DNA of 64,000 nucleotides from positions 165,533 to 229,532 of the forward strand of contig DOSJ01000004.1 of NCBI GenBank assembly GCA_003514005.1, in the 5' to 3' direction. A program made the position numbers and the translations under genes. Each line of letters opens with the position of its first letter. Position 1 is the first letter of the stretch. Below are positions 1,441-53,148 of this stretch, in pieces. The notes beneath the pieces were generated by a model, which did no database searches, was not told where the DNA came from, and was given only the letters and a program-made list of their open reading frames with translations. Source of the DNA: Candidatus Falkowbacteria bacterium. GTDB lineage: Bacteria; Patescibacteriota; Patescibacteriia; Patescibacteriales; UBA12075.

Positions 1441-4395
1441 ATGCAAATAATTGCTGAAAAAAAATTAAATGACAACCAAGCGCAAGCCGTGAACCATGTC
1501 ACCGGTCCTGCTTTAATCGTGGCTGGCGCGGGAACAGGGAAAACAACGGTTTTGATTGAGCGATTGCATAATTTGTTTGTAAATAAGCTTGCTCGTCCAG
1601 ACGAGGTTTTGCTTTTGACGTTTACGGAAAAAGGCGCGGGCGAGATGGAGGATCGGGCATTGAAGATATTGCCGATGGGTTATGTGGATTTGTGGATCAA
1701 TACTTTTCATGGATTTACCGAGCGGGTTTTGCGTGAACATGCACTGGATATCGGCCTTAGTCCGTCTTTCAAACTTTTGACTCAGACTGAACAATGGATA
1801 TTGATTAAGAAGAATTTGGATAAATTTGATTTGGATTATTATAAACCGCTTGGCAATCCTAACAAGTTTATTTATGAATTAGTGAAACATTTTTCGCGGT
1901 TGAAGGATGAGAATGTTTCTGCGTTGGAGTATTTAAAATATGTGGAGGGGTTGGTGGCGAATAAAGATGAAGTTAGAAGTAAGAAGTTAGCCGTGCCTGC
2001 CGGCAGGCAGGAAGTAAGAAGTAATGATGATATTCAAGAAATTAAACGTGTTTGTGAGCTTGCTAATGCTTATCATGTTTATAATAATTTGCTTTTAGAG
2101 AATGAGAATTTGGATTTTGGGGATTTGATTTTTTATGCGATTAAACTTTTTAAAGAGCGGCCGAATATTTTGCGGTATTATCAGGATAAATTTAAGTTTA
2201 TTATGGTGGATGAGTTTCAGGATACGAATACGGCGCAATATGAGTTGATTAAAATCTTGGCTGGTAAGAAAGCGAATCTGATGGTTGTGGGCGATGATGA
2301 TCAAGCTATTTATCGTTTTCGTGGCGCGTCTTTGTCGAATATTTTGCAATTCAAAGATGATTATCCGAATGCGGCCGAGATAATCTTGAATGAAAACTAT
2401 CGTTCAGGGCAGAATATTTTGGATAATGCTTACAAATCAATTCAAAACAACAATCCTGACCGTTTGGAAATAAAATTAAAAATAAATAAAAAATTGCAGG
2501 CAAATAAAGCGGAGTCCGGAAACGTGGAGCATATAAATTTTACTGACTATGGATCCGAGTCGGAGTGGATTGCGGAGAAAATAAAAACAAGTCGCGATGC
2601 TAGTGGCTTGAAATGGTCTGATTTTGCGATTCTTGTACGCGCGAATAGCGATGCTGATGCTTATGTAGGAGAACTGACACGCAAAAACATTCCCAATACT
2701 TTTGTGTCACTCAAAGGTTTGTATTTCAAGCCATTGATTTTGGATGTCTTGGCTTTTTTGCGGCTACTCGATAATTATCATGAATCAAGCGCGCTTTTTC
2801 GTGTTTTAAATATGCAAGCATTCGCGATTGATCATGGTGAAATCGTTAATATCAGCCGTTTTGCGCGTAAAAAAATCTGGTCGCTTTATGAAGCGCTAAA
2901 AAATATTGAGGCAGTTCCCGGCCTTTTGCCGGAAAGTTATAAGAGTGCGAATAAATTGGTCGCGTTGATCGGAAAATTTTTGGAAATGGTTAAAAAGGAA
3001 AGCGCAAGCCGTGTTTTTGTAAAATTTATTTATGAATCAGGCATTTTGGTTGGCAAAGACTATGATCGCGATCAGGAATTTTTTTCTTACCTGAATCAAT
3101 TTTATAAAAAAATAACAAAGTTTGAAGAAAACGAGCCGGGCGCGCGTTTGAAGGATTTTTTGGAATACTTCAACATGGAAATCGAGGCGGGCGAGACCGG
3201 TTCACTGCGTTTGGATTTTGGCGACGAAGATACGGTAAAAATTATGACAGTGCATTCTGCCAAGGGACTGGAGTTTGATACGGTATTTTTACCGTGTTTG
3301 GTAGATAAGAAGTTTCCAACCATCAATCGCTCTGAAAAAATTGATATTCCGGAAGCGTTGGTTAAAATCAAAATTGTCGGCGGCAAAGAAGCGCATCTGG
3401 AAGAGGAACGCCGTCTATTTTACGTTGCTTTGACACGCGCTAAACATAATCTATTTTTGACCAGCGCGAAAGATTATGGCGGTAAGCGCGAGAAAAAGCC
3501 ATCGATATTTTTGGAAGAGATCGGTTTGGCCATGAGTCAACACGAAAAGAAAACGCGAACGAGCGAGATTGTTAACGCCCTAAACGATTACGCGAGCGGA
3601 ATTGCTGAAAAGAAATTTAATTTTACGCCTCCGCAAAAATTCTCGTTTTCACAGGTAGAGGCTTTTACTAATTGTCCTTTGCAATACAAATTTAATTTTA
3701 TTTTGAATATTCCGGTTCTACCCAAAGCGGTTTTTATCTTTGGCCGTACTCTACACAATTCTCTCCGCGATTTTTTCTTGCCCTTGATCGTAAATAGTTT
3801 TCAAGCTGGATTATTTGATTCACTGCCAAGTAAAAAGATTAAGCTAGACTACAAAGACTTGGAGAAAGCATACAACTTGCATTGGCAGAATGACAATTAT
3901 GACAGTATAAAAGAGAGAGAAGACTATAAAAAACAGGGCAGGGAAATGTTAAAACTGCTTTTTGCTTATTACGAAAATAATGGCTGGCCGGATGTCGCGT
4001 TTATTGAGAAAAGTTTTTTGGTAAATATCGGCGATTATATTTTTAAGGGCGCGATTGATCGGGTTGATAAATTGGCAGATGGTACATACGAAATTCTGGA
4101 CTATAAAACCGGCAATCCCAAGGAAAAATTATTGTATGATGATAAGCGGCAGTTAATGCTGTATAAAATCGCGCTGGAAGAGGGGATGGGACTGAAAGTA
4201 TCAAGTCTGGCATATTTTTATCTAAAGAACGGTGAGAAAGTCAGCTTTGAATCCAAACCCAAGGACGAAGAAAAACTAAAAGCCGAGTTGTTTGAAAGCA
4301 TCCACGGTATTTGCAAAGGTGAGTTTTTGCCAAAACCTAGTTTGCTTTGTGGATATTGCGATTTTAATCAGATTTGTGAGTTTAGACAGAAATAA
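1441..4395 (+). CDS. UvrD/PcrA-family helicase fused to a C-terminal PD-(D/E)XK Cas4/AddB-like nuclease with a Cys cluster
   Basis: Walker A GAGTGKTT, DEFQDT and TVHSAKGLEF helicase motifs. The C-terminus has CPLQYKF...DRVD...LDYKTG...CGYCDFNQIC. Start moved to ATG 1441 because the earlier codons lie in the repeat. Confidence 0.85.
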   Translation: MQIIAEKKLNDNQAQAVNHVTGPALIVAGAGTGKTTVLIERLHNLFVNKLARPDEVLLLTFTEKGAGEMEDRALKILPMGYVDLWINTFHGFTERVLREHALDIGLSPSFKLLTQTEQWILIKKNLDKFDLDYYKPLGNPNKFIYELVKHFSRLKDENVSALEYLKYVEGLVANKDEVRSKKLAVPAGRQEVRSNDDIQEIKRVCELANAYHVYNNLLLENENLDFGDLIFYAIKLFKERPNILRYYQDKFKFIMVDEFQDTNTAQYELIKILAGKKANLMVVGDDDQAIYRFRGASLSNILQFKDDYPNAAEIILNENYRSGQNILDNAYKSIQNNNPDRLEIKLKINKKLQANKAESGNVEHINFTDYGSESEWIAEKIKTSRDASGLKWSDFAILVRANSDADAYVGELTRKNIPNTFVSLKGLYFKPLILDVLAFLRLLDNYHESSALFRVLNMQAFAIDHGEIVNISRFARKKIWSLYEALKNIEAVPGLLPESYKSANKLVALIGKFLEMVKKESASRVFVKFIYESGILVGKDYDRDQEFFSYLNQFYKKITKFEENEPGARLKDFLEYFNMEIEAGETGSLRLDFGDEDTVKIMTVHSAKGLEFDTVFLPCLVDKKFPTINRSEKIDIPEALVKIKIVGGKEAHLEEERRLFYVALTRAKHNLFLTSAKDYGGKREKKPSIFLEEIGLAMSQHEKKTRTSEIVNALNDYASGIAEKKFNFTPPQKFSFSQVEAFTNCPLQYKFNFILNIPVLPKAVFIFGRTLHNSLRDFFLPLIVNSFQAGLFDSLPSKKIKLDYKDLEKAYNLHWQNDNYDSIKEREDYKKQGREMLKLLFAYYENNGWPDVAFIEKSFLVNIGDYIFKGAIDRVDKLADGTYEILDYKTGNPKEKLLYDDKRQLMLYKIALEEGMGLKVSSLAYFYLKNGEKVSFESKPKDEEKLKAELFESIHGICKGEFLPKPSLLCGYCDFNQICEFRQK
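1969..2022. repeat. in-frame AGAAGT-word insertion with a central 12-bp palindrome CCTGCCGGCAGG, inside the helicase CDS
   Basis: GAAGTTAGAAGTAAGAAGTTAG..CCTGCCGGCAGG..GAAGTAAGAAGT spans 54 bp (18 codons, EVRSKKLAVPAGRQEVRS). The same words build the intergenic hairpins at 4394, 9493 and 32885. Confidence 0.7.
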
Positions 4396-4567
4396 GAAGT
4401 TTGAAGTAAGAAGTTAGAAGTAAGAAGTTTTTAGTGAGAGGTAAAAAGTCTAAAATATGCTAAGCACTTGAAAAATGTTTCTTTTTATACTAAAGTAACA
4501 GATAGTTAAAGTATGAAAAAGATAATTTTTTTTATATTTCTAACTTCTAACTTCTTACTTCTAACTT
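4394..4567. repeat. intergenic word hairpin (AGAAGT words)
   Basis: AAGAAGTTTGAAGTAAGAAGTTAGAAGTAAGAAGT (4394-4428) faces TTCTAACTTCTAACTTCTTACTTCTAACTT (4538-4567). Confidence 0.75.
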
Positions 4568-4572
4568 AAAAC

Positions 4573-4950
4573 ATGTCTTTAAAAAAATACCTAATTTTCA
4601 TGAGTATTGCGACCGTTATCTGTTGGTCTGCCTTTGCTTATGTTATTTTTACGGTTAATCCGGCGATTACTAATTGGATTGGTTTTGGTTTGTTTTATAC
4701 ATCTTTGTTTTTGGCTATTATCGGTACTTCGGCGATTCTTGGTTTTGTTGTTCGTTTTATTGCCTTGAAACAAGAAATTGCTTTTCGTTTGGTAAATGAG
4801 GCTTTTCGGCAGTCATTTTTATTTGCGATATTGATAATCGTAAGTTTGCTACTGTTAAGCCAAGAACTATTTACCTGGTTGAACTTGTTTTTTTTGATTA
4901 TCGGCTTGTCGGTTTTGGAGTTTTTTATGCTTAGCTATAAGAGCAAATAA
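4573..4950 (+). CDS. hypothetical 4-TM membrane protein
   Basis: 125-aa ORF with four hydrophobic segments. Confidence 0.5.
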   Translation: MSLKKYLIFMSIATVICWSAFAYVIFTVNPAITNWIGFGLFYTSLFLAIIGTSAILGFVVRFIALKQEIAFRLVNEAFRQSFLFAILIIVSLLLLSQELFTWLNLFFLIIGLSVLEFFMLSYKSK

Positions 4951-20266: not shown

Positions 20267-20327
20267 TTAAGTCCTAATTTCTAAATTATAAATCCAAAAA
20301 ATTATAATTTAGAACTTAGGACTTAGA
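20267..20327. repeat. intergenic word hairpin (TTAGAAAT / ATTTCTAA words)
   Basis: TTAAGTCCTAATTTCTAAATTATAA faces TTATAATTTAGAACTTAGGACTTAG. Confidence 0.7.
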
Positions 20328-20417
20328 AATTAATTATTTTTCTAAATCAAATTTTATAATACTAATTAGTAATTTACTGAAAATAACAGTATTAAATCTA
20401 GAAAGGTAGGTGTTATT

Positions 20418-26498: not shown

Positions 26499-27279
26499 GT
26501 GCCAAAAATAATCGCGATCGGCGGCGGTGAGATTGGGCGGGCGGGGTATCCGATTGAAACTACCGCGATTGACAAAGAAATAATCAGATTGAGTGGGAAG
26601 AAAAATCCGCTTGAGTGGGAAGAAAAATCCGCGCTTGCTTTTTTTGCTGACAGCGAGCTCTGATTCCAAGGGTTATTTTGCGGATGTGTCCAGGCATTTT
26701 GGCGATAGGCTGGGATGCGAGGTGTCTGCTCTTTATCTTTTAAAAAATAAATATTCGCAAAAGCAGATAGAGAAAATAATTTTAAGTGCTGATATAATTT
26801 ATGTGGGTGGGGGAAATACTTTGAAAATGATGACAGCTTGGCGCAAGTATGGTGTTGATAAAATTCTTCACAAAGCCTGGAAAAAAGGAGTAATAATATC
26901 AGGTGTAAGTGCTGGTTCTATTTGCTGGTTTAAATATGGCAATTCTGATTCGCGTAAGTTTAAAAATAAGGACGCGGGTATGATAAAAGTGAGCGGACTT
27001 GGCTTTATAAATGCTTTGCACTGTCCACATTATAATATTGAGCCGGGACGAAAAGAAAGCTTGAAAAAAATAATGAAAAAAACACAAGGTATCGCGATTG
27101 CTTTGGATAATTGCTGTGCTTTGGAGATTGTCGATGACAAATATCGAATTATTACATCACGAAAAAATGCTAAGGCGTATAAAGTTTATTGGAGGGGTGA
27201 TTGTTTTTATGAGTTGCCTATTAAAGAAATAAATGAATTTCAAGATATTAGTGAATTGCTAAGAAAAAATATAAAGTAA
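26499..27279 (+). pseudogene. peptidase S51 (dipeptidase E family) disrupted by a 22-bp tandem duplication
   Basis: GTG 26499 gives VPKIIAIGGGEIGRAG...IIRLSGKKNP, then the frame breaks. Removing one copy of TTGAGTGGGAAGAAAAATCCGC fuses it to ...RLLFLLTASSDS...GGGNT...GVSAGS. Confidence 0.8.
26589..26632. repeat. perfect 22-bp tandem duplication (2 copies)
   Basis: TTGAGTGGGAAGAAAAATCCGC at 26589-26610 and again at 26611-26632. Confidence 0.95.
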
Positions 27280-27733: not shown

Positions 27734-29875
<2,142 letters not shown>

Positions 29876-29889
29876 TTTTTATTCACGGC

Positions 29890-30010
29890 GTAAATCTTTA
29901 GTGGTTCTTATTTTTCCTCCTGCGGAACTCGCGTCCACCGTGTGGTAGTCCAGTCATTGTTTAGGCTCGGACAGTCCTCGGAGTAAAAATAAGAATCACT
30001 AAAGATTTAC
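29890..30010. repeat. 31-bp-stem hairpin with a 59-nt GC-rich core between ligA and gatC
   Basis: GTAAATCTTTAGTGGTTCTTATTTTTCCTCC (29890-29920) pairs 29/31 with GGAGTAAAAATAAGAATCACTAAAGATTTAC (29980-30010). Confidence 0.7.
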
Positions 30011-30045: not shown

Positions 30046-30336
30046 ATGGAACTATCAAAAGAACAAATACAACATATTGCTACTCTGGCACGACTGGAAT
30101 TGACCGATGAAGAGCTGGAAAAATATGGCGGACAATTGTCTGCTGTTTTGGGGTATATTGAGCAGCTGCAGGAAGTAGATACTGACGGAATCGAACCGAC
30201 GGCGCAGGTGACTGGTTTGGAAAATTCTTGGCGCGAGGATGTTGTGCGGGTTTGGGATGACGGAGAAAGATTGTCGGCGATTAATCTGGCGCCAGAGGTG
30301 GATGATGGACAGGTGAAGGTTAGGAGAGTTTTGTGA
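30046..30336 (+). CDS. gatC: Asp/Glu-tRNA amidotransferase subunit C
   Basis: IQHIATLARLELTDEELEKYGGQLSAVLGYIEQLQEVDT. Confidence 0.9.
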   Translation: MELSKEQIQHIATLARLELTDEELEKYGGQLSAVLGYIEQLQEVDTDGIEPTAQVTGLENSWREDVVRVWDDGERLSAINLAPEVDDGQVKVRRVL

Positions 30337-30381
30337 TTTTCGATTTTCGAATGTCGATTGTCGAATTAGTAATTATCTTTT

Positions 30382-30495
30382 TTGTCATTTCGTAGCGAAG
30401 CGGAGAAATCTCTTAACCGTGAATATGCCATAGATAAGGGATTTCTACATTCACAGAGTTTATCCCGTTTTACGGGGCTCATTGCGAAATGACAA
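30382..30495. repeat. MITE-like element, family 1 subtype B (TTGTCATTTCG...CGAAATGACAA)
   Basis: Shares the TTTTTTGTCAT / ATGACAAAA termini and the arm-hairpin layout (ATTTC..GAAAT) with subtype A. The internal sequence differs. Confidence 0.6.
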
Positions 30496-32884: not shown

Positions 32885-32973
32885 GAAGTAAAAAGTAGGA
32901 AGTAAGAAGTTAGAAGTAAGAAATAATAATTAATCACATTTTTTCTTACTTCTAACTTCTTACTTCTAACTTT
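32885..32973. repeat. intergenic word hairpin (AGAAGT words) abutting tRNA-Ser
   Basis: GAAGTAAAAAGTAGGAAGTAAGAAGTTAGAAGTAAGAAA faces TTTCTTACTTCTAACTTCTTACTTCTAACTTTT. Confidence 0.75.
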
Positions 32974-32976
32974 TTA

Positions 32977-43726: not shown

Positions 43727-44890
43727 ATGAAATTATTAATTTGTACGCAAAAAGTAGATAAAAATGACGATCTTTTGGGGTTTTTTCATGCTTGGATCGC
43801 GGAGTTTGCGCAGAATTGCGAAGGCGTTACCGTGGTTTGTTTGTTTCGGGGAGAGGTGGATTTGCCTGAGAATGTTAGGGTTTTGTCGTTGGGAAAAGAA
43901 AGTGGGGATTTTCGATTTTCGATTTTCGATTTTCGATTTATTTTAAAATTTAAATATTTAATTAATTTTTTTAAATATATTTGGCAGGAGCGGAAGAATT
44001 ATGATACTGTGTTTGTGCATATGAATTCGATTTATGTTTTGCTTGGGGGATTGTTTTGGAAGGCGTGGGGAAAAAAGATTGGGCTTTGGTATGCGCATGG
44101 GCATGCGCCTTGGCAGCTCTTGGTTGCGGAAAAAATGGTTGATGTTGTGTTTACGTCTACGGCGAGCGGATGTAGGTTGAAGTCTGGGAAGATTCGGATT
44201 GTGGGGCAGGGAATAGACGTTGGAAATTTCCGATTTCCGATTTCCGATTTCCGATTTAGGGAAATACAAAAATCGAAAATCGAAAACCCGAAAAGTCCCG
44301 TTTGGACATCGGGTCCTTTACGGGATCGAAAATCGAAAATATCCCTGATTACTGTCGGCAGAATTTCGCCTGTAAAAAATCTTGAAACTTTGATTAATGC
44401 TGTTGAATTATTGGTAAAAAAGGGGATTGATGTTAAGCTGGATATTGTTGGGGCTATTGGATTAGTGGAACAGAAAGCATATTATGACTTTTTGTCGAAA
44501 ATGATAAATGAGAAAGGCTTGGCGAAAAATATTCAATTTGTCGGCTCTGTGCCGAATAAAGATATTGTTGAGTATTTGCAAGCGGCTGATATCTTTGTCA
44601 GCGCCAGTCAGACCGGCAGTTTGGACAAAACTTTTCTCGAGGCAATGGCCTGCGGTTTACCTGTAATCGGCTGTAATGTGGCGTTGGATGCTGTTTTGGG
44701 AGAATATAAAGATAGGCTATTTTATAGTGCGGGAGATTATTTGGCCTTGAGCGATAAAATCGAGAACGTGCTTGGTTTAAGCGAAGCAGAGTATGCGAAG
44801 ATGGCGGAGGATTTAAGAGGGGTGGTGGTGAGGGAGCATGGGTTGGGTGAGTTTGTGAAGAAAATTTTAAAAATATCCAATACTCAATAA
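43727..44890 (+). CDS. GT4-family glycosyltransferase carrying two in-frame repeat insertions
   Basis: The C-terminal half has ...ITVGRISPVKNL...ASQTGSLDKTFLEAMACGLPVIG (the E(x7)E region). Confidence 0.8.
   Translation: MKLLICTQKVDKNDDLLGFFHAWIAEFAQNCEGVTVVCLFRGEVDLPENVRVLSLGKESGDFRFSIFDFRFILKFKYLINFFKYIWQERKNYDTVFVHMNSIYVLLGGLFWKAWGKKIGLWYAHGHAPWQLLVAEKMVDVVFTSTASGCRLKSGKIRIVGQGIDVGNFRFPISDFRFREIQKSKIENPKSPVWTSGPLRDRKSKISLITVGRISPVKNLETLINAVELLVKKGIDVKLDIVGAIGLVEQKAYYDFLSKMINEKGLAKNIQFVGSVPNKDIVEYLQAADIFVSASQTGSLDKTFLEAMACGLPVIGCNVALDAVLGEYKDRLFYSAGDYLALSDKIENVLGLSEAEYAKMAEDLRGVVVREHGLGEFVKKILKISNTQ
43907..43939. repeat. (GATTTTC)n word tract in frame inside the GT4 gene
   Basis: GATTTTCGATTTTCGATTTTCGATTTTCGATTT encodes DFRFSIFDFRF. 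Confidence 0.8.
44225..44340. repeat. composite TTCCGATT / AATCGAAA palindromic word block plus a GC hairpin, in frame inside the GT4 gene
   Basis: (ATTTCCG)x4 ... AAAATCGAAAATCGAAAA ... CCCGAAAAGTCCCG-TTTGGACAT-CGGGTCCTTTACGGG ... ATCGAAAATCGAAAAT. It encodes [38 protein letters not shown] in the inter-domain linker. Confidence 0.8.
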
Positions 44891-44975
44891 TCAATATCCA
44901 ATAAATATCAAAGTATATAATATTCAATTTTTGGATTGATTATTTTATATTGAATGGATATTGAGTATTGAATAT
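44878..44975. repeat. ATTCAATA-word hairpin, copy 1 of a ~100-bp direct repeat pair flanking the asnB-like gene
   Basis: Roughly 85% identical by eye to 46851-46950. Shared core: AATATTCAATTTTTGGATTG..TATTTTATATTGAATGGATATTG.GTATTGA. Confidence 0.75.
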
Positions 44976-44982
44976 TAATAAT

Positions 44983-46839
44983 ATGTGTGGCATAAACGGT
45001 TTTAATTTTAAAGACGAAGCCCTAATCAATAAAATGGTTCGGGCTACTCGCCATCGCGGTCCGGATGATAGCGGGGTTTTTTGTGATGAGAATATTTCAC
45101 TTGGGCATAATCGTTTGGCGATAATTGATTTGTCGCCGGCCGGGCATCAGCCGATGTTGAGCAGAGACAAGCGTTATGCGATTGTTTTTAACGGTGAGCT
45201 GTATAATTTTCAAGAGATTAGAAAAGACCTCGAAAAGAAAGGGCGAAAATTTGTTTCCAGATCAGATACCGAGGTGATACTCGCTGCATTTATCGAATAC
45301 GGTCCGGAGTGTTTGCAAAAATTTAACGGGATATTTGCTTTTGCGATTTGGGACAAGGCAAAACAAGAGCTGTTTGCCGCGCGCGATCAGTTTGGCGTAA
45401 AGCCGTTTTTTTATTTTTGGGATAACCAGCGTTTTATTTTTTCTTCTGAGATAAAAGGGATTCTTGAACACAAGATTGAAAAAAACATTAATCAAAATGC
45501 CTTGAATTGCTATTTTTGTTTGCTGTATACACTTGGTCCGGATACTATTTGGCAGAATATTTCGAAGCTACTACCTGGTCATTATTTGGTATTAAATAAA
45601 ACCGGATTGAATTTAAAAAAATATTGGAGCATACAGCTCGGCCAAGCGATCAGCGACCGGGAGGAGGCGAAAGCAAGGATAAAAGAACTGCTTCGGGCTT
45701 CTGTTAAGCGGCAGATGATTGCCGATGTGGAGGTGGGCATGTTCCTTTCCGGTGGACTGGACTCAACCATTGTCTTGGGATTAATGAAAGAATTGACAGA
45801 AAAAAAAATCAAGACTTTTAGCGTCGGCTTTGCGGTCAGCGCTGATCAGGATGAAAAATTTAATCAAGACGCGATTTTGGCAAAACGGACTTCCGCGTTT
45901 TATGGCACCGAGCATCATGAAATATATTTGAATGAGCAAGACATGATTGCGAATTTGGAAAATATGGTTTCTGCTATGGATGAACTTGTGTATAGCCCCA
46001 CGCAGGTCGCGAATCTGCTTTTGGCGCGCCTGGCAAAACAAAAAGTAAAGGTTGTTTTAGGAGGCGATGGCGGGGATGAACTTTTTGGCGGCTATACTCG
46101 GTATTACTACTATAACCTGATCGAAAAATGGCGGCGCTTGCCCAGGATTTTTAGAAATAATATCGGTATGAAAAACCTGTTTGCGCTCGCGCGGAAAAGC
46201 GATATGTATGGGCGTTTGAATATGGATGATTTTTCCGCATTTTGGTCATTTATGGCGCAAAAAGAGGATTTATTAACGCGGATAATCCGGCCGGAGATTA
46301 ATGATTTGGCAGGAGCGCAAAATTATGTTAAAAATAAGTCAGGCTTAGAAACATTCGGTCCGGGGTTACCTTTGAGCGAAAAGATGATGCAGGCGGATAT
46401 GCGGACTTGGCTCGTTGAATATTCTTTGGCTCGGACCGACAAGATTACGATGGCGGCTGGTTTGGAAGAGCGAGTACCGATTTTAGACATTGATCTGGCG
46501 CAGATGGCTGTGAATATTCCGACAAAATACAAAATCAATTCCCGCAATCAAGGTAAATTGATTTTGAAAGAAGCGATGCGAGAATATATTCCTGATTTTA
46601 TTTACAACAAACAAAAAACCGGCTGGTTCGTGCCAATGGCCAAATGGCTGCGCGCGGGACTAAAAGATACGGCATACGATATTTTGTCAGATTCGTATAA
46701 CCAAGGAAGGACAAGCCAGTATCTGGATTTAGCGGAAGCGCGGAAGATTTTGGACGATCATGTTTCTGGTCGCAAATATGCGCTTAATACGATTTGGTCA
46801 GTGATAAATTTTCAAGTTTGGTTTAGGAGATTTTATTAA
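44983..46839 (+). CDS. asparagine synthase (glutamine-hydrolysing) family amidotransferase
   Basis: MCGINGF N-terminal nucleophile Cys (start moved to ATG 44983) and an SGGLDS PP-loop. Confidence 0.9.
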   Translation: MCGINGFNFKDEALINKMVRATRHRGPDDSGVFCDENISLGHNRLAIIDLSPAGHQPMLSRDKRYAIVFNGELYNFQEIRKDLEKKGRKFVSRSDTEVILAAFIEYGPECLQKFNGIFAFAIWDKAKQELFAARDQFGVKPFFYFWDNQRFIFSSEIKGILEHKIEKNINQNALNCYFCLLYTLGPDTIWQNISKLLPGHYLVLNKTGLNLKKYWSIQLGQAISDREEAKARIKELLRASVKRQMIADVEVGMFLSGGLDSTIVLGLMKELTEKKIKTFSVGFAVSADQDEKFNQDAILAKRTSAFYGTEHHEIYLNEQDMIANLENMVSAMDELVYSPTQVANLLLARLAKQKVKVVLGGDGGDELFGGYTRYYYYNLIEKWRRLPRIFRNNIGMKNLFALARKSDMYGRLNMDDFSAFWSFMAQKEDLLTRIIRPEINDLAGAQNYVKNKSGLETFGPGLPLSEKMMQADMRTWLVEYSLARTDKITMAAGLEERVPILDIDLAQMAVNIPTKYKINSRNQGKLILKEAMREYIPDFIYNKQKTGWFVPMAKWLRAGLKDTAYDILSDSYNQGRTSQYLDLAEARKILDDHVSGRKYALNTIWSVINFQVWFRRFY

Positions 46840-46850
46840 TATACAATTTT

Positions 46851-46950
46851 CAATACTCAATATTCAATGAATATCCAAGTATTTAATATTCAATTTTTGG
46901 ATTGGCTATATTTTATATTGAATGGATATTGTGTATTGATTATTGAATAT
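46851..46950. repeat. ATTCAATA-word hairpin, copy 2 of the direct repeat pair flanking the asnB-like gene
   Basis: See 44878-44975. Confidence 0.75.
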
Positions 46951-46961
46951 TATATTCTTGT

Positions 46962-47687
46962 ATGCAAACAGAAGATGTAAAAAATAAATATAACGCGGAT
47001 ATTGTAAATAAGTTTAACAACAAGTACGAGCAAGAACGTTGGTTTAAGAATGATATTCAGAAGGCCGGGTATGATATGACTTTATCTGCAATAAAAACGC
47101 ATGCCTTGGTAAAACTATACCAAAGCTGTTTTGAGCTTGGTCCCGGGCATGGTACTTGGACAAAGGAATTGTTTGGGTATCAGCCGGGCGCGGATTATAC
47201 GCTTTTGGATATATCGAGCGCGATGCTTGGTTTGGTTAAGGATAGATTTAAGGGAAACAGTAATTTTAATTTTATTGAAAGTGATTTTTTGCAGTTTACA
47301 ACAGAAAAAAAATTTGATTTTTTCTTTTCGTCTCGTGTAATCGAGTATATTCCGGAAAAATCGCTTATGGTCAAAAAAATTGCGAGCCTTATCCAGTCTG
47401 GTGGCAGGGGATTTATAATTACAAAAACTCCAAAGTATTTGCGAAAAAAAATTATGGGTATTGCGGTGCCGGAATTCCACAGCGGGCAGATTGCGCCCGG
47501 TGAGCTCGCAAAATTATTAAAAGAAAATGATTGTCAGAATATCAAAATTTTTCCGGTAACACTAAGCTGGCCGTTTTGGCGCTCGGCGAAAATGAATTTG
47601 TTGTTGTATAAGTATTTTGGAAATAAAGGTTTGAATTTTGTCAGCGAATTTTTTAGCGAGTCTTATTGTGTTTGTTTTGAAAAATAA
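46962..47687 (+). CDS. class I SAM-dependent methyltransferase
   Basis: Motif I: FELGPGHGTW. Motif II/III spacing: LLDIS...FDFFFSSRVIEY. Confidence 0.75.
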   Translation: MQTEDVKNKYNADIVNKFNNKYEQERWFKNDIQKAGYDMTLSAIKTHALVKLYQSCFELGPGHGTWTKELFGYQPGADYTLLDISSAMLGLVKDRFKGNSNFNFIESDFLQFTTEKKFDFFFSSRVIEYIPEKSLMVKKIASLIQSGGRGFIITKTPKYLRKKIMGIAVPEFHSGQIAPGELAKLLKENDCQNIKIFPVTLSWPFWRSAKMNLLLYKYFGNKGLNFVSEFFSESYCVCFEK

Positions 47688-47693
47688 TGCTTG

Positions 47694-47785
47694 GCAGGGA
47701 TTTATAAGATTTATAAGATTTTTTAGAAAGGTATTATATCTTATTCCTATTATAAAAAAATCATATAAATCTTATAAATTCCTGC
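47694..47785. repeat. intergenic word hairpin (TTATAAGAT words)
   Basis: GCAGGGATTTATAAGATTTATAAGATT faces AATCATATAAATCTTATAAATTCCTGC. Confidence 0.75.
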
Positions 47786-47794
47786 AAATTTTTT

Positions 47795-48394
47795 ATGTTT
47801 ATTGAAATATATGGCTTGCCCGGTTCAGGAAAAACTACTTTAGCAAAACGGCTGGTTGCGGAAAAGAATTATATGATAATCAAAATTCGCACAAAATACG
47901 AACTGTTTTGGTATAATTTTTTGTTTTTGATAAAGCATCCGTACCGATTTTTTCTTTTGTTTTTTTATATTATAAAATATTCGGATAATTGGAAGATTTT
48001 TTATTATAAACTGATGAATGCTTTTTTACACTATAACGCAAAATATCAGAAGGCTTTGAAATATGAAAATGCGATTGTTGATCAAGGCTATTTTTTGAAT
48101 GCTTTCGCGTTGTTTGACAATCCGGTTTCCGAGATTGAAATAAAAAAATATTTTGAGCTGGTTTTAAGGCCTGACTTGTTAGTTATTTTAGACATTCCTT
48201 TTGATTTAAGTTTGGAGCGAACCAAAGCACGCGGCTATTTTGCGCGGGAGGATTTTGGGGAAGAGTATAAGAAAAAATGGCAAAAGGCGGTTAATGAAAA
48301 TAATAGTTTGTTTTTAGAAATCATAAAACAAATAAGAGTTGATTATAAAATAATAAACGAAAAAAATTATTCCAATTTTGATGATTTGACATAA
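47795..48394 (+). CDS. P-loop kinase-like protein (dNK/thymidylate-kinase fold)
   Basis: IYGLPGSGKTTLAKRL Walker A, and a later DQG...LDIP...ERTKARG lid-like region. Confidence 0.6.
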   Translation: MFIEIYGLPGSGKTTLAKRLVAEKNYMIIKIRTKYELFWYNFLFLIKHPYRFFLLFFYIIKYSDNWKIFYYKLMNAFLHYNAKYQKALKYENAIVDQGYFLNAFALFDNPVSEIEIKKYFELVLRPDLLVILDIPFDLSLERTKARGYFAREDFGEEYKKKWQKAVNENNSLFLEIIKQIRVDYKIINEKNYSNFDDLT

Positions 48395-48440
48395 AATAAC
48401 ATATACGTTATATTTTAGTTATAAATAATTATTGAAAAAT

Positions 48441-48731
48441 ATGACTAATTTTCAAGATTTTAAAAATAAGGTTTTAAAAAATAAAGAAATAAAACGTTTT
48501 TATGATGAACTCGGACCGGAGTTTGAATTAATTCACCAGCTGATAGAAAAACGCATCAAAGCCGGATTGACGCAGACGGAACTAGCGCAGAAAATAGGCA
48601 CAAAACAATCTGCAATATCAAGGTTGGAACGGGGCGATTATAATCCCAGTGTAGCTTTTTTAAGAAAAGTAGCGGAAGCGCTTGGTTCTGAATTACGTAT
48701 TTCATTGCCAGGGTCTCGTTCAAGAAATTGA
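48441..48731 (+). CDS. XRE-family helix-turn-helix protein (HigA/antitoxin-like size)
   Basis: GLTQTELAQKIGTKQSAISRLERGDYNPS. Start moved to ATG 48441. Confidence 0.8.
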   Translation: MTNFQDFKNKVLKNKEIKRFYDELGPEFELIHQLIEKRIKAGLTQTELAQKIGTKQSAISRLERGDYNPSVAFLRKVAEALGSELRISLPGSRSRN

Positions 48732-48733
48732 CT

Positions 48734-49903
48734 ATGAAAATAATTTATATAGTTAACGCCCGCATTCCTACGGAAAAAGCGCATGGGTATCAGATTACCA
48801 AGATGTGCGAAGAGTTTGCTTTGGCCGGAGCCGAAGTCGAGCTTTGGGTGCCGACGCGGAAAAATAATATTCTTGGCAATGCTTTTTCGTTTTATGGCAT
48901 AAAAGAAAATTTTCGGATCAGATATGTAAAATGTTTTGATTTTATCCGTTTTGACCGCCTGCTTTTGCGAAAATCAGTGTACTTGCAAAGCTTGTGGTTT
49001 TTTATCAAACTAGCCTTTGAAAAAGCGGATAAAGATGTTATTATTTATACAAGGAATCCAGAGTTGGTCTGGCTTTTTAATTTGCGTGGGTTTATGACCG
49101 CTTATGAATGCCATGACTGGTTTGGCAAGAAAAAAGGAATTGCCCTATGGCTTTTGCGCAGATGTGACCGGATAATAGTTACAAATAATTTCATCAAGCA
49201 GGAATTTATCAAAAACGGTTTTGCGCAAACTATTTTGGTCGCACCCAATGGCGTGAATTTGGAAATTTTTAATATTGATATTGAAAAAGAGAAAGCCTTG
49301 CAAAAGCTAAGCCTGGAGCAAGAACTGGGAGAAAAGATTCGCGATCAGAAAATATTACTGTACACCGGTTCGTTCCGGACAATGGGGACTGACAAGGGGA
49401 TTGCGGAAATTTTAGAGTCTTTGAAAATTTTGAATCGTCCTGAAGTTTTTTTTCTGGCTGTCGGGGGCAATGAAAAAGATATTGCCTATTACGAGAGTTT
49501 GGCAAAAGAAATCGGCGTGTCTGACAAATGTAAATTTATCGGCCGGCGTACGCAAACCGAGTTGGCGCTTTGGCAAAAAATATCCGATATATTATTGATG
49601 CCGTTTCCAGATAAGGCGCATTATCGTTATTTTATGACACCGCTTAAGATTTTTGAATATATGGCCAGCGGTCGGCCGATTATTGCTTCGGATTTGCCGA
49701 GTATACGCGAGATATTAAATAATGAAAATGCGTTTTTTTGTAAGGCAGGAGATACAAATGATTTGAGCAGGAATATTGATTTTGTTTTAAATAATCCGGT
49801 TGAGACGGATAAAAAAGCGGTAAAGGCAAAGAAAGATGTGTTTCGATATACTTGGGAAAAAAGAGTAAAAGAAATTAATTGTTTGTTGTCAAAATTATCA
49901 TAA
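48734..49903 (+). CDS. GT4-family glycosyltransferase
   Basis: MKIIYIVNARIPTEKAHGYQI... at the N-terminus and ...LKIFEYMASGRPIIASD at the C-terminus. Confidence 0.8.
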   Translation: MKIIYIVNARIPTEKAHGYQITKMCEEFALAGAEVELWVPTRKNNILGNAFSFYGIKENFRIRYVKCFDFIRFDRLLLRKSVYLQSLWFFIKLAFEKADKDVIIYTRNPELVWLFNLRGFMTAYECHDWFGKKKGIALWLLRRCDRIIVTNNFIKQEFIKNGFAQTILVAPNGVNLEIFNIDIEKEKALQKLSLEQELGEKIRDQKILLYTGSFRTMGTDKGIAEILESLKILNRPEVFFLAVGGNEKDIAYYESLAKEIGVSDKCKFIGRRTQTELALWQKISDILLMPFPDKAHYRYFMTPLKIFEYMASGRPIIASDLPSIREILNNENAFFCKAGDTNDLSRNIDFVLNNPVETDKKAVKAKKDVFRYTWEKRVKEINCLLSKLS

Positions 49904-49908
49904 AAAAA

Positions 49909-49950
49909 TTAAAATAAAAGTCCTCATATTATTTTAATAATACAAGGACT
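49909..49950 (-). terminator. hairpin plus T-run terminator for the minus-strand gene 49962-50858
   Basis: AGTCCT/AGGACT stem at 49919-49950. The minus strand reads TTTATTTT after the stem. Confidence 0.45.
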
Positions 49951-49961
49951 AAAAAATGTCT

Positions 49962-50858
49962 TTAGTTTAATTCGTTTTGCCAGATGTTTTTTATCCAGAA
50001 ATTTAATATTTCTTTTTGACTATTTATGAAATCCGTAATGTCGTTAACGTCAACATTGTTGTCATTGTTAAAATCCGCAGAAAAATATGGCATTACCGAT
50101 ACGATGTTATTTGTTGGTACATTATTTACATCACAAACATAAGTGATCTCTAAATATGGGTCCTGTGATGTCCCAGCAGTTTCAGATGTTGACCAATATA
50201 AGATATTTGCGTAGCTTGAAGAATTTGCAGTAATAGGATGATCTAATGCGTCGTGTCCTTCTCTCAAGCCAAGTTTTGTAATACCCTCAGCATTTATCCA
50301 ACTGATTCCAGTGTCATTAAGTATAAATGCTTGGTATCTGTCCGTCCCCATATTGCTTATATCAACTCTTAAGCCACCTTCAGTCGGATTATTTACGGAA
50401 CCACATTGATCAAAATCGTCATTTGACAAAGAAGTTGTATTCGCCTGTGTTGTTTGCACAATAGTTATCCAATCTTCCCCATCGTTGTCTAGGTCATAGA
50501 TATACCATGTATAAATTTGAAGTTTTGCAGAAATTATCATAGCCCCAGTTGGAATATCAGAGGTGTCTATTGGAAGAAAAGACCTTCCAATTCCCCATTT
50601 TGTTGATACATTATACCATTGTGACCATACATGAGATTCGTCGCTTGTGTAATCTGTCGATGTACTTTGAGTGTTGTCATGGGAGTAGTCCCAGTTAGTC
50701 GGACTATTTGTGTTATAATCTTCTCGCATGCAGTATCCATCACCTGAACCTGCGTAAAATTTTTGTACTACCACTACATTCTCTGCGTTTGCAAAGTTTG
50801 CCCGAAGGATGATTGTCAAAAAACAAACTAAAACGGTAAATAAGTACATTTTTTTCAT
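49962..50858 (-). CDS. secreted hypothetical protein with a dockerin/EF-hand-like C-terminal DxNxDxxVD motif
   Basis: Signal peptide MKKMYLFTVLVCFLTIILRANFANA, and a C-terminal FSADFNNDNNVDVNDITDFIN. Confidence 0.5.
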   Translation of the reverse strand: MKKMYLFTVLVCFLTIILRANFANAENVVVVQKFYAGSGDGYCMREDYNTNSPTNWDYSHDNTQSTSTDYTSDESHVWSQWYNVSTKWGIGRSFLPIDTSDIPTGAMIISAKLQIYTWYIYDLDNDGEDWITIVQTTQANTTSLSNDDFDQCGSVNNPTEGGLRVDISNMGTDRYQAFILNDTGISWINAEGITKLGLREGHDALDHPITANSSSYANILYWSTSETAGTSQDPYLEITYVCDVNNVPTNNIVSVMPYFSADFNNDNNVDVNDITDFINSQKEILNFWIKNIWQNELN

Positions 50859-51039
50859 TTTTAAGGCTCCTTTTTATTTTGTTGAAAGAACACACCATAA
50901 ACATGTAATCAAATATTAATTTAGAACTAATATTTTGTCAATATATAGCATATACTAAAATTTAACTATTTATATTGTGAATAAATGATATTTTAAGTTA
51001 TTATATTTATAATAGAATATAAATATTTATGAGAAATTA

Positions 51040-53148
51040 ATGAAAATAAATAAATTATCTATAATCATTCCGGTTTTTAATGAAGAGAAGACGATTGAGG
51101 CTATTTTGGATCGGATTGAAAAATCAAAAATCAGAACTGATATTGAAAAAGAAATCATTATTATTGATGATGGTTCGACTGACGGAACGCGCGACATATT
51201 ACAGGGGTATGCGGATAAATATCGGATAGTATTTCAGGAAAAAAACCAAGGCAAGGGCGCTGCTGTTCGTACCGGCTTTGCGATTGCCAGCGGTGATTAT
51301 GCCATTGTGCAGGACGCGGATTTGGAATATAATCCTGACGATATTCAGGGTTTGATAGAAAAGGCAGAGCAGACGGATGCCAAGATTGTTTTTGGTTCGC
51401 GGGTTTTGGGACTAGATAAACGTGAAGAAACTCCGGGTATATTTTATTATCTGGGCGGGCATTTTTTGTCTTGGCTGACCAATTTTTTGTATGGCGCGCA
51501 TATTACCGATGAACCGACTTGCTACAAGATGTTTAGCCGCGAAGTTTTGGCAAACATAAAACTGGAATGCGACGGTTTTGAGTTTTGTCCGGAAGTAACG
51601 GCAAAGGCGCTGAAGGCCGGATATGAAATCGCGGAAGCGCCGATCAGCTACAAGACCAGGACCAAAAAAGAAGGAAAGAAGATAAAGCTGTTTCGCGACG
51701 GTTGGTTGGCAATCTGGACATTGCTTAAATATCGTTTTAATGACAAACGCGCGCTTTTCGGTTTTGTAAAATTGTATAAATGGTGGCTTGTTCTTATTGC
51801 CGCCTATTTGCTTGTCAGAGTCGTTTTGTTTGGCGGGCTTTGGGGCGCCAGCGCGAACGGCTGGGAAAACTTTTACAATCAGGCGCAATCCGGGCATGCC
51901 GTACTTTTAGCCAATTGGCATGAGCCTTGCGATTGGCATCCGCCTTTGTATTATTTTTTTACAACTGTTTTTCTTTTGATGTTCAAGTCCGCCTGGCCGG
52001 TATATCTGGCACAGATGATTTTGGCCTTGGCCGGAGTTTATTTGATATATAAAATCGGGAAATTATTTTTTTCGCCGCGCGTGGCGTTTATCGCCACTTT
52101 TATTGCCGCAATCGAACCGTATTCAGCTTGGCACAATTTTCTTTTGACAGCTGAATCTTTGTCCGCGTTTTTTCTACTTTTGGGAATCTATTACTTCTTT
52201 CGCTTTTTTCAAAACAGTAAAACCGTGTTTTTGCTTGGCGCGGCCATAATCTTTGGGTTTGCGACTTTGACGCGCTTGAATACATTATATCTGCCTCAGG
52301 CGCTGAGCTTGGGAATTTTGTCGATTTATTTTATCCGTCGTCCGTTTGGATTACCGTATTTTTCCGGTTTGAAGTTTAAAAATATTTTGCTGGTTGTTTT
52401 GCTTTTTAATGCCGTATATTTTGCGGTTCTTTTTCCTTGGCAAATGCGCAACAAAATCGTTTACGGCAAATACACGATTGCTAATGTGCTTATGACAAAT
52501 GTTTTCCATTATAATTATCCGACCGCCATGTTTATCAAAGACAATATTTCCTACGATGAGGCTAATAATTTGATTCGGCAGAAAGCGGAAAATGATTTAG
52601 GAAAAAATGTTGGCGATCAAGGGGATTGCAGTTTGTTTAGCAAAGACGAGTTGGTGAAACAATTTGATTATTATAAAAAAGAATCCGGAAAATACATGAA
52701 AGAGAATTTTTGGCAGTATACACGCGTGCACTTGATCCGTACTGCCCCGTTTTTTCTTGATTCAGGATATTTGAATCTGATCCAGGAGTTTACCGGCGTT
52801 TATGCCAAACCGGATATTACCGGAAGTCTTATGACCGGAAATTTCAAAGCGGTTTTTGATTATCTGAAAAATTTTAATTTTTCGCTTTTGGCTTATCTGT
52901 TCGGTTTGGCGTTTTGGGGAATATGTTCGCTTTCGGTTTTTGGCGGAATCATTTATACTTATTTCAAAGACCGGAACAAGTTGTTATTTTTCCTTTTATC
53001 TGCCGGCGTAATCATCTACTCTGCCTTGCTTTGCTCGCCCTTTGTTTTAGCCCGTTATCGTTTACCGGTTTATGTTTTCTTTTTGGTGCCGTTTGTGTAT
53101 ATGATTGGAGAGGTTTTGATAAAAATAAAAAAAAGATTTTTTAATTAA
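51040..53148 (+). CDS. GT2 (polyprenyl-phosphate glycosyltransferase-like) fused to an ArnT/PMT-like polytopic glycosyltransferase domain
   Basis: LSIIIPVFNEE...IIIDDGSTDGT...VQDADLEY, followed by ~12 TM helices. Confidence 0.8.
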   Translation: MKINKLSIIIPVFNEEKTIEAILDRIEKSKIRTDIEKEIIIIDDGSTDGTRDILQGYADKYRIVFQEKNQGKGAAVRTGFAIASGDYAIVQDADLEYNPDDIQGLIEKAEQTDAKIVFGSRVLGLDKREETPGIFYYLGGHFLSWLTNFLYGAHITDEPTCYKMFSREVLANIKLECDGFEFCPEVTAKALKAGYEIAEAPISYKTRTKKEGKKIKLFRDGWLAIWTLLKYRFNDKRALFGFVKLYKWWLVLIAAYLLVRVVLFGGLWGASANGWENFYNQAQSGHAVLLANWHEPCDWHPPLYYFFTTVFLLMFKSAWPVYLAQMILALAGVYLIYKIGKLFFSPRVAFIATFIAAIEPYSAWHNFLLTAESLSAFFLLLGIYYFFRFFQNSKTVFLLGAAIIFGFATLTRLNTLYLPQALSLGILSIYFIRRPFGLPYFSGLKFKNILLVVLLFNAVYFAVLFPWQMRNKIVYGKYTIANVLMTNVFHYNYPTAMFIKDNISYDEANNLIRQKAENDLGKNVGDQGDCSLFSKDELVKQFDYYKKESGKYMKENFWQYTRVHLIRTAPFFLDSGYLNLIQEFTGVYAKPDITGSLMTGNFKAVFDYLKNFNFSLLAYLFGLAFWGICSLSVFGGIIYTYFKDRNKLLFFLLSAGVIIYSALLCSPFVLARYRLPVYVFFLVPFVYMIGEVLIKIKKRFFN

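Follow-up and report, generated by a model that had tools for sequence, protein, structure and literature searches.

A glycosyltransferase gene of Candidatus Falkowbacteria with two in-frame heptanucleotide tracts and a natural allele lacking one repeat unit

Why should a glycosyltransferase gene carry, inside its coding sequence, two perfect runs of a seven-nucleotide word? The question is raised by a GT4 gene of 387 codons at 43727-44890 (+ strand) of a 64,000-nt stretch of DNA from Candidatus Falkowbacteria, an ultra-small groundwater bacterium of the Parcubacteria group within Patescibacteria (GenBank assembly GCA_003514005.1, contig DOSJ01000004.1, positions 165,533 to 229,532; hereafter the window). 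An earlier note on this DNA had taken the repeats for a translated inter-domain linker and had suggested that slippage within them might switch the gene on and off. Here, we show that a natural off allele, shorter by a single unit, exists in an otherwise identical genome, and that in Patescibacteria at large tracts of period 7 gather preferentially in GT4 genes. The reading that we favour is that the gene is a maintained stochastic on/off (contingency) switch of a cell-envelope glycan. We give it an even chance; its maintenance as a reversible, adaptive switch and its glycan target are what we infer.

The repeat elements described in the earlier note are all present, in frame, in the open reading frame (ORF) 43727-44890, with the second block starting at 44226. 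Site 1 is a perfect (GATTTTC)4.7 tract at 43907-43939 (+ strand; Tandem Repeats Finder, TRF, score 66) and encodes D61-F71, DFRFSIFDFRF. Site 2 is a composite on the same strand. It opens with a perfect (ATTTCCG)4.6 tract (44226-44257, TRF score 64), followed at 44269-44286 by (AAAATCG)2.6 (AAAATCGAAAATCGAAAA; inverted repeats I3-I7), an inverted partner of the site-1 tract and, apart from one mismatch in each unit, of the site-2 tract. A 38-nt GC-rich element at 44287-44324 (CCCGAAAAGTCCCG...CGGGTCCTTTACGGG) is nested between this tract and (ATCGAAA)2.3 at 44325-44340 (ATCGAAAATCGAAAAT; inverted repeats I10-I12), the other inverted partner, whose complementarity to the units of site 1 is 100%. 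No perfect period-7 run in the window is longer than the tracts of 33 nt at site 1 and 32 nt at site 2; all others reach at most 20 nt. The 14-mers of the two tracts have 9 and 8 matches, where chance predicts 0.27 and 0.07. The composite folds at -42 kcal/mol as RNA and at -25 kcal/mol as DNA (z = -2.0), and there is no local hairpin at site 1 (z = -1.3). The GC-rich hairpin proposed earlier exists as a segment, but its fold is just weakly better than that of shuffled sequences (z = -2.2); what stands out is how well its sequence is conserved, more than how it folds. An Rfam scan of the window returned two tRNAs only and no family overlapping the repeats, and no T-run is present 3' of the hairpins. 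Long-range pairing between the two sites exists in the window but was dropped as a functional idea, since it is not conserved in the orthologous loci L001 or L002.

The assignment to GT4, as a retaining-type enzyme with the GT-B fold, is well founded. Pfam Glycos_transf_1 matches the ORF at 4.9e-28 (98.3 bits for a cut-off of 26.4) and Glyco_trans_1_4 at 86.2 bits (cut-off 27). The AlphaFold (AF2) model, built on 117 homologues and with a mean predicted local distance difference test (pLDDT) of 91.8, predicts two Rossmann-like domains in the GT-B arrangement, resembling solved GT4 enzymes. Foldseek retrieves BshA, MshA, sucrose-phosphate synthase (SPS), HepE and PimA with template-modelling (TM) scores of 0.72-0.77 and E-values down to 7e-19. 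R212, K217, D300, K301 and E305 stand in invariant columns of the alignment. The same sequence is found in a Candidatus Falkowbacteria GW2011 protein (P0121) and in the protein named in GW2011_GWC2_38_22, GWE1_38_31 and GWF2_38_1205.

The only low-pLDDT parts of the model, residues 61-70 (about 58) and 171-200 (42-59), coincide with the two repeat blocks. Site 1 is predicted to be a disordered loop of the N-terminal domain, between the strand 50-54 and the helix 69-87, and site 2 an enlarged inter-domain linker (residues ~165-204). The proposal that the repeats form the inter-domain linker thus holds for the second block, which is 138 nt long where the basal state is 57-72 nt, but not for the first. 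That both are translated as extra loop or linker is borne out by the orthologues, for which we assembled 81 loci from species-level Patescibacteria genomes and three further loci. In all 81 the inserts have lengths that are multiples of three and are free of stops, a pattern expected only if they are read by the ribosome. Hence, judging from the sequences, the tracts are translated in the common allele.

The best database match to the GT4 protein (P0001) turned out to be the same protein, called only from Met99. Its contig, k141_287961 of ENA ERZ27254731 (244 kb), aligns to positions 34014-54890 of the window over 20,877 columns without any substitution and with one gap, the absence of a single GATTTTC unit (43907-43913). 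The loci L085 and L086 are those lacking this unit. The loss is not a multiple of three, so that the gene is frameshifted and split into ORFs of 70 and 289 aa; this is the kind of length change between relatives that the earlier note had proposed to look for, and it directly supports the idea of phase variation. About eight other heptamer tracts lie within the alignment and are unchanged. Our initial leaning was against phase variation, because ligA, an essential gene, has repeats of this family too and the intact 387-aa protein is present on at least 24 contigs; it was this allele that reversed it.

In the switch that we favour, two perfect heptanucleotide repeats would occupy places that the fold tolerates, and the common allele, in which both are read through, would be the on state. 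Replication slippage by one or two units would shift the frame, because seven is not divisible by three, and translation would halt within a few codons (off); a change by three units would keep the frame and the on state, with a loop longer or shorter by 7 aa. Simulated unit changes behave in this way at both tracts: every change by ±1 or ±2 units ends translation within a few codons, leaving products of 70-77 aa at site 1 and 172-211 aa at site 2, and ±3 units preserve the frame. The heptamer-armed palindromes found elsewhere in the genome may have given rise to the tracts, and mispairing may be made easier at site 2 by the palindromes that surround its tract. Four of the traits by which contingency loci made of simple-sequence repeats (SSRs) are recognised are present here. 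Perfect in-ORF tandem repeats with a unit not divisible by three are found at both GT4 tracts; unit-number polymorphism between otherwise identical genomes is found in one instance, at site 1; truncation of the product upon length change is found in the split allele and in the simulations. The fourth, location in surface or envelope genes, is found as an enrichment in GT4 genes, whose surface role is suggested by gene context.

Is this arrangement peculiar to one genome? Strong period-7 tracts occur in the orthologous gene of 23 of the 81 genomes, and 35 of their 39 tracts fall at sites 1 and 2; each of the other periods accounts for 1-3 tracts. Site 1 measures 21 nt in its basal state and is enlarged in about 35 loci; site 2 is enlarged in 9. 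In a neighbour-joining tree, expanded and basal states are interleaved among the clades. The units themselves vary from genome to genome (e.g. GTTATGC, CAATTTT, AAATTCA, AGACAGT, AGGAATC). In the sister lineage L001 the site-1 tract has the same length, and every copy carries a changed unit, (CAGATTT) for (TCGATTT) here; the copies must therefore have gone through repeated rounds of contraction and expansion.

The 38-nt GC-rich element is single-copy in the window. It reappears in L030 (3520-3557), in a GT4 gene whose product is just 47% identical; there it occupies the corresponding place in the linker and matches at 33 of 38 nt, but is read in a different frame. It is absent from the other 82 loci. 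The insert is hence not kept as protein in homologues, and the element is conserved as DNA and not as peptide. Transfer, conversion, or a tiny mobile element targeting heptamer tracts are all candidates for its origin.

The association with glycosyltransferases extends to the flanking genes. Using explicit ORFs classified with hidden Markov models (462 ORFs in 429 kb), we found 26 period-7 tracts in GT4-like ORFs, which make up 39% of the ORF bases and comprise 20 distinct genes with tracts, and 2 elsewhere (P = 3.6e-9, binomial test), both of the latter being A-rich low complexity. For periods 6, 9 and 12 there is no preference for GT4-like genes (P = 0.82, 0.44 and 0.21). This phylum-wide, GT4-specific pattern, together with the occurrence of the repeat family in ligA and in intergenic regions, goes beyond what the earlier note had contemplated. 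It raises the tentative possibility, one we would not yet bank on, that Patescibacteria (the Candidate Phyla Radiation) rely throughout the phylum on heptanucleotide repeats for their contingency loci: selection would keep slippage-prone 7-nt tracts in permissive GT4 loops, these regulator-poor, ultra-small episymbionts could thereby switch envelope glycans randomly and hedge against attack by phages or against their hosts, and units would turn over while sites persist.

The tracts of the GT4-like flanking genes often lie directly after a GDGPE motif. Among the paralogous GT4 genes adjoining the focal one, such tracts are seen in L078 (1045-2646), L034 (1745), L038 (1959), L063 (902-993), L031 (996) and L009 (2102). 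They encode 7-residue repeats (e.g. NLKSQISNLKLE, NYKLQITNYKL) that have the appearance of amphipathic helices.

Slippage switches in glycosyltransferase genes are well known; a case in Patescibacteria would be new. In Haemophilus, Neisseria and Campylobacter, tetranucleotide or homopolymer SSRs are concentrated in glycosyltransferase genes and turn them on or off by frameshift upon slipped-strand mispairing. The concentration and the frameshift mechanics are as here. The differences are the 7-nt unit, the short tracts, the bearers, which are free-living or episymbiotic groundwater bacteria, and the reuse of the same two loops throughout the phylum with different units. In full-text searches of the literature, no publication was found that connects Patescibacteria with simple-sequence repeats or with phase variation. 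For H. influenzae, simple-sequence repeats are covered by a survey (PMC2651432). The closest known analogue is neuO, the capsule O-acetyltransferase of E. coli K1 carried by prophage CUS-3, which has a translated heptanucleotide repeat of 3-53 units at the 5' end of its coding sequence and is on only if the number of units is divisible by three (PMC13001214). A translated heptanucleotide repeat in a coding sequence can therefore act as a switch. Both cases combine such a repeat with a glycan-modifying enzyme and lose the frame by slippage that is not a multiple of three. Yet the GT4 gene has two tracts of 4.6-4.7 units, placed in internal GT-B loops with palindromic surroundings, is biased to the on state by about 26 to 1, belongs to Patescibacteria, and is known from sequence alone. 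Borgs also carry genome-specific, fast-evolving tandem repeats within ORFs that add disordered peptide, but all their in-ORF units are divisible by three (PMC9879509), whereas with a unit of seven each single-unit step breaks the frame. Keeping a 7-nt unit within ORFs is thus unusual.

If the switch is real, it has consequences for how these organisms live and for how their genomes are read. Much of bacterial diversity belongs to Patescibacteria, which spend their lives on other cells, possess tiny genomes poor in regulators, and are almost wholly uncultured. A glycosyltransferase switched by repeat slippage would be a cheap means of bet-hedging for them, of a kind so far documented mainly in host-adapted pathogens. 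Such tracts also cause split or 'pseudogene' calls in metagenome-assembled genomes (MAGs), as the Met99 call of P0001 exemplifies, and once translated they can resemble odd low-complexity linkers.

Heptamers are not confined to the GT4 gene. The window holds 19 period-7 tracts against 0-3 for each of the other periods between 4 and 13, and its heptamer tracts total 19-27, mostly intergenic. Most period-7 tracts are the arms of long intergenic palindromes just 3' of stop codons and belong to several unit families. GATTT(T/C)C units occur at four loci; tract lengths and arrangements differ among these, and they share no consensus element. One copy of the family is in frame in ligA (27737-29875), where sequence and translation reveal an imperfect 67-nt heptamer palindrome with ATTTTCG/ATTTCCG arms (28040-28106, + strand; DNA fold z = -5.3). 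Its place is the junction of domain Ia with the adenylation domain, and the KxDG motif comes shortly after it. Since the closest homologues (P0123-P0125, 73-62% identity) lack it, the insertion must be recent, and it is probably inert rather than a switch. From this in-frame copy and the intergenic palindromes it follows that the GT4 repeats are also part of a genome-wide family. A further tract, (GAAGTTA)3 at 29423-29456, lies in the helix-hairpin-helix (HhH) region of LigA.

Two known repeat systems bear on this wider family, not on the switch. Cyanobacteria are said to contain abundant tandem heptanucleotides (STRR) with small dispersed repeats nested in them, reportedly described by Elhai and colleagues in 2008, in a study listed as reference 43 of PMC3116915. 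The small GC-rich element nested in heptamer tracts is reminiscent of that arrangement, which serves as a lead and not as a test, and concerns another phylum; to our knowledge, GT4 specificity and frameshift alleles are not part of its description. The Rickettsia palindromic elements (RPEs) are in-frame palindromic insertions in unrelated genes, and their translation adds surface-exposed peptide to the proteins (PMC10969869). Both the LigA and the GT4 inserts resemble them in being in frame and absent from close orthologues, with LigA as the best fit. RPEs differ by their length of about 100-150 bp and their conserved consensus, whereas we found variable 7-nt units without a consensus and a perfect tract that is polymorphic in length.

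Several observations weigh against the switch. The presence of heptamers cannot by itself prove one, because the same family occurs, if imperfectly, in an essential gene and in intergenic palindromes. The exact intact GT4 protein is found in 26 assembly blocks, of which 18 have contigs of 0.2-1 Mb, and a single block has the split form; the exact LigA protein is found in 33 blocks (19 with such contigs). One off allele thus stands against about 26 on among long-contig assembly blocks, which are not independent samples, where 65.6% of genomes are off for neuO (PMC13001214). A virtual-repair test of 99 tracts in 82 genomes recovered L086 as positive control and no further off allele. In ten tract-bearing orthologue clusters the close relatives showed no unit-number variants, their length differences coming from the choice of start codon only, and two scans of metagenome contigs, one with the GC element and one with the site-1 flanks and a variable gap, gave no match. 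Switching rates may also be low, since the tracts are short (4-5 units). An all-against-all comparison of the loci revealed no additional tract polymorphism, and no variation in unit number was seen at site 2 among the available assemblies. These facts suit a reading that we take seriously while thinking it on balance not the right one, in which a process at work throughout the genome, one that generates repeats or is mobile, gave rise to tracts and GC element alike, these survive as tolerated junk only in loops where additional peptide does no harm, and the allele lacking one unit is an ordinary null of a dispensable gene. The heptamer tracts and palindromes throughout the window, the recent in-frame insertion in ligA, the dominance of on alleles and the precedent of in-frame selfish palindromes in Rickettsia (PMC10969869) all speak for it, and so does the GC element shared with a distant genome in another frame, which is the behaviour of DNA and not of protein. 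Yet it leaves unexplained the near-exclusivity for GT4 (26 against 2 tracts), given that other dispensable genes of the same clusters are without tracts and that other periods are unbiased. The exceptional length and perfection of the GT4 tracts within the window, and the retention of tracts at the same two loops in 23 of 81 genomes despite unit turnover, are equally unaccounted for.

The remaining explanations fare worse. An assembly or consensus error at a stable tract would fit a single observation made on one MEGAHIT-style contig, when the remaining assemblies all match the window. But the tract is far shorter than the final k-mer (k = 141) and the reads, which makes collapse of the repeat by the assembler unlikely; the difference is exactly one unit, and the other 20,870 nt are free of errors. 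We therefore regard the allele as more likely real than artefactual, and an error as improbable. A role at the RNA or DNA level, in which hairpins would stall ribosomes at the domain boundary, attenuate expression from within the gene, stabilise the mRNA or bind a protein and the peptide would be incidental, seems to us about as improbable. Site 2 and the LigA insert do both lie at domain boundaries and fold stably, and the 38-nt element is kept as nucleotide sequence. However, site 1 lacks a local hairpin, many inserts of the orthologues are direct repeats only, units and structures vary between genomes without conservation, and neither an Rfam family other than tRNAs nor a T-run after the hairpins accompanies the repeats.

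The gene context is compatible with a role of the GT4 gene, and of the switch we favour, in envelope glycans, to the extent that neighbours can suggest a surface target. A glycosylation-type neighbourhood follows the gene on the + strand (44968-53148; Pfam and the L086 gene table), with an AsnB-like amidotransferase, a methyltransferase, a P-loop kinase-like protein, a second GT4 and a GT2 fused to PMT_2. The wider neighbourhood includes a giant Peptidase_S74-domain protein and membrane proteins. The GT2/PMT_2 gene contains a tandem repeat of a 26-nt unit (2.7 copies, 52880-52949). Among the relatives of the focal protein, one of 505 aa (P0108) has a PDDEXK_3 (PF13366) domain added to the glycosyltransferase domains.

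Palindromes with tandem-heptamer arms are found in nearly every longer intergenic region of the window: 1291-1442, 4396-4572, 9488-9620, 12111-12285, 20272-20332, 32886-32976, 44872-44979 and 46842-46955. Their unit families include AATAATC, GAAGTNA, ATTACAA and TTAGAAA, and many of their arms reach right up to the neighbouring stop or start codon. The region 12100-12295 forms a stem of about 50 bp (-74 kcal/mol). Terminator, mRNA stabiliser and mobile element are all candidates for the function of these palindromes. An intergenic copy of the site-1 family stands directly after the gatC stop codon (30335-30366, + strand) and consists of the units GATTTTC, GATTTTC, GAATGTC and GATTGTC. Long hairpins separate ligA, gatC and gatA, one at 29890-30010 with a perfect 26-bp stem and a GC-rich core (z = -7.7) and one at 30383-30495 (z = -5.4); neither has a credible match in Rfam. 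The start of the ORF 26593-27279 coincides with a tandem repeat of a 22-nt unit (2.6 copies, 26575-26632).

Some orthologous loci show features of their own. An apparent insertion of about 550 bp near the 5' end in some 18 loci was set aside, since in L043 it is the adjacent paralogous GT4 gene taken up by tblastn. A perfect (AAACCCT)6.7 tract, the telomere unit of plants, lies at 5640-5686 of L034, whose contig was assigned to a Saccharibacteria MAG. This may be one more heptamer tract, or else the contig is chimeric or a contaminant. In L030, the focal GT4 gene and the next, GtrA-like gene both end within (AGAATTA)n tracts, of 9.4 units at 4176-4241 and 4.4 units at 4658-4688, so that their products share the C-terminal peptide LRIKN.

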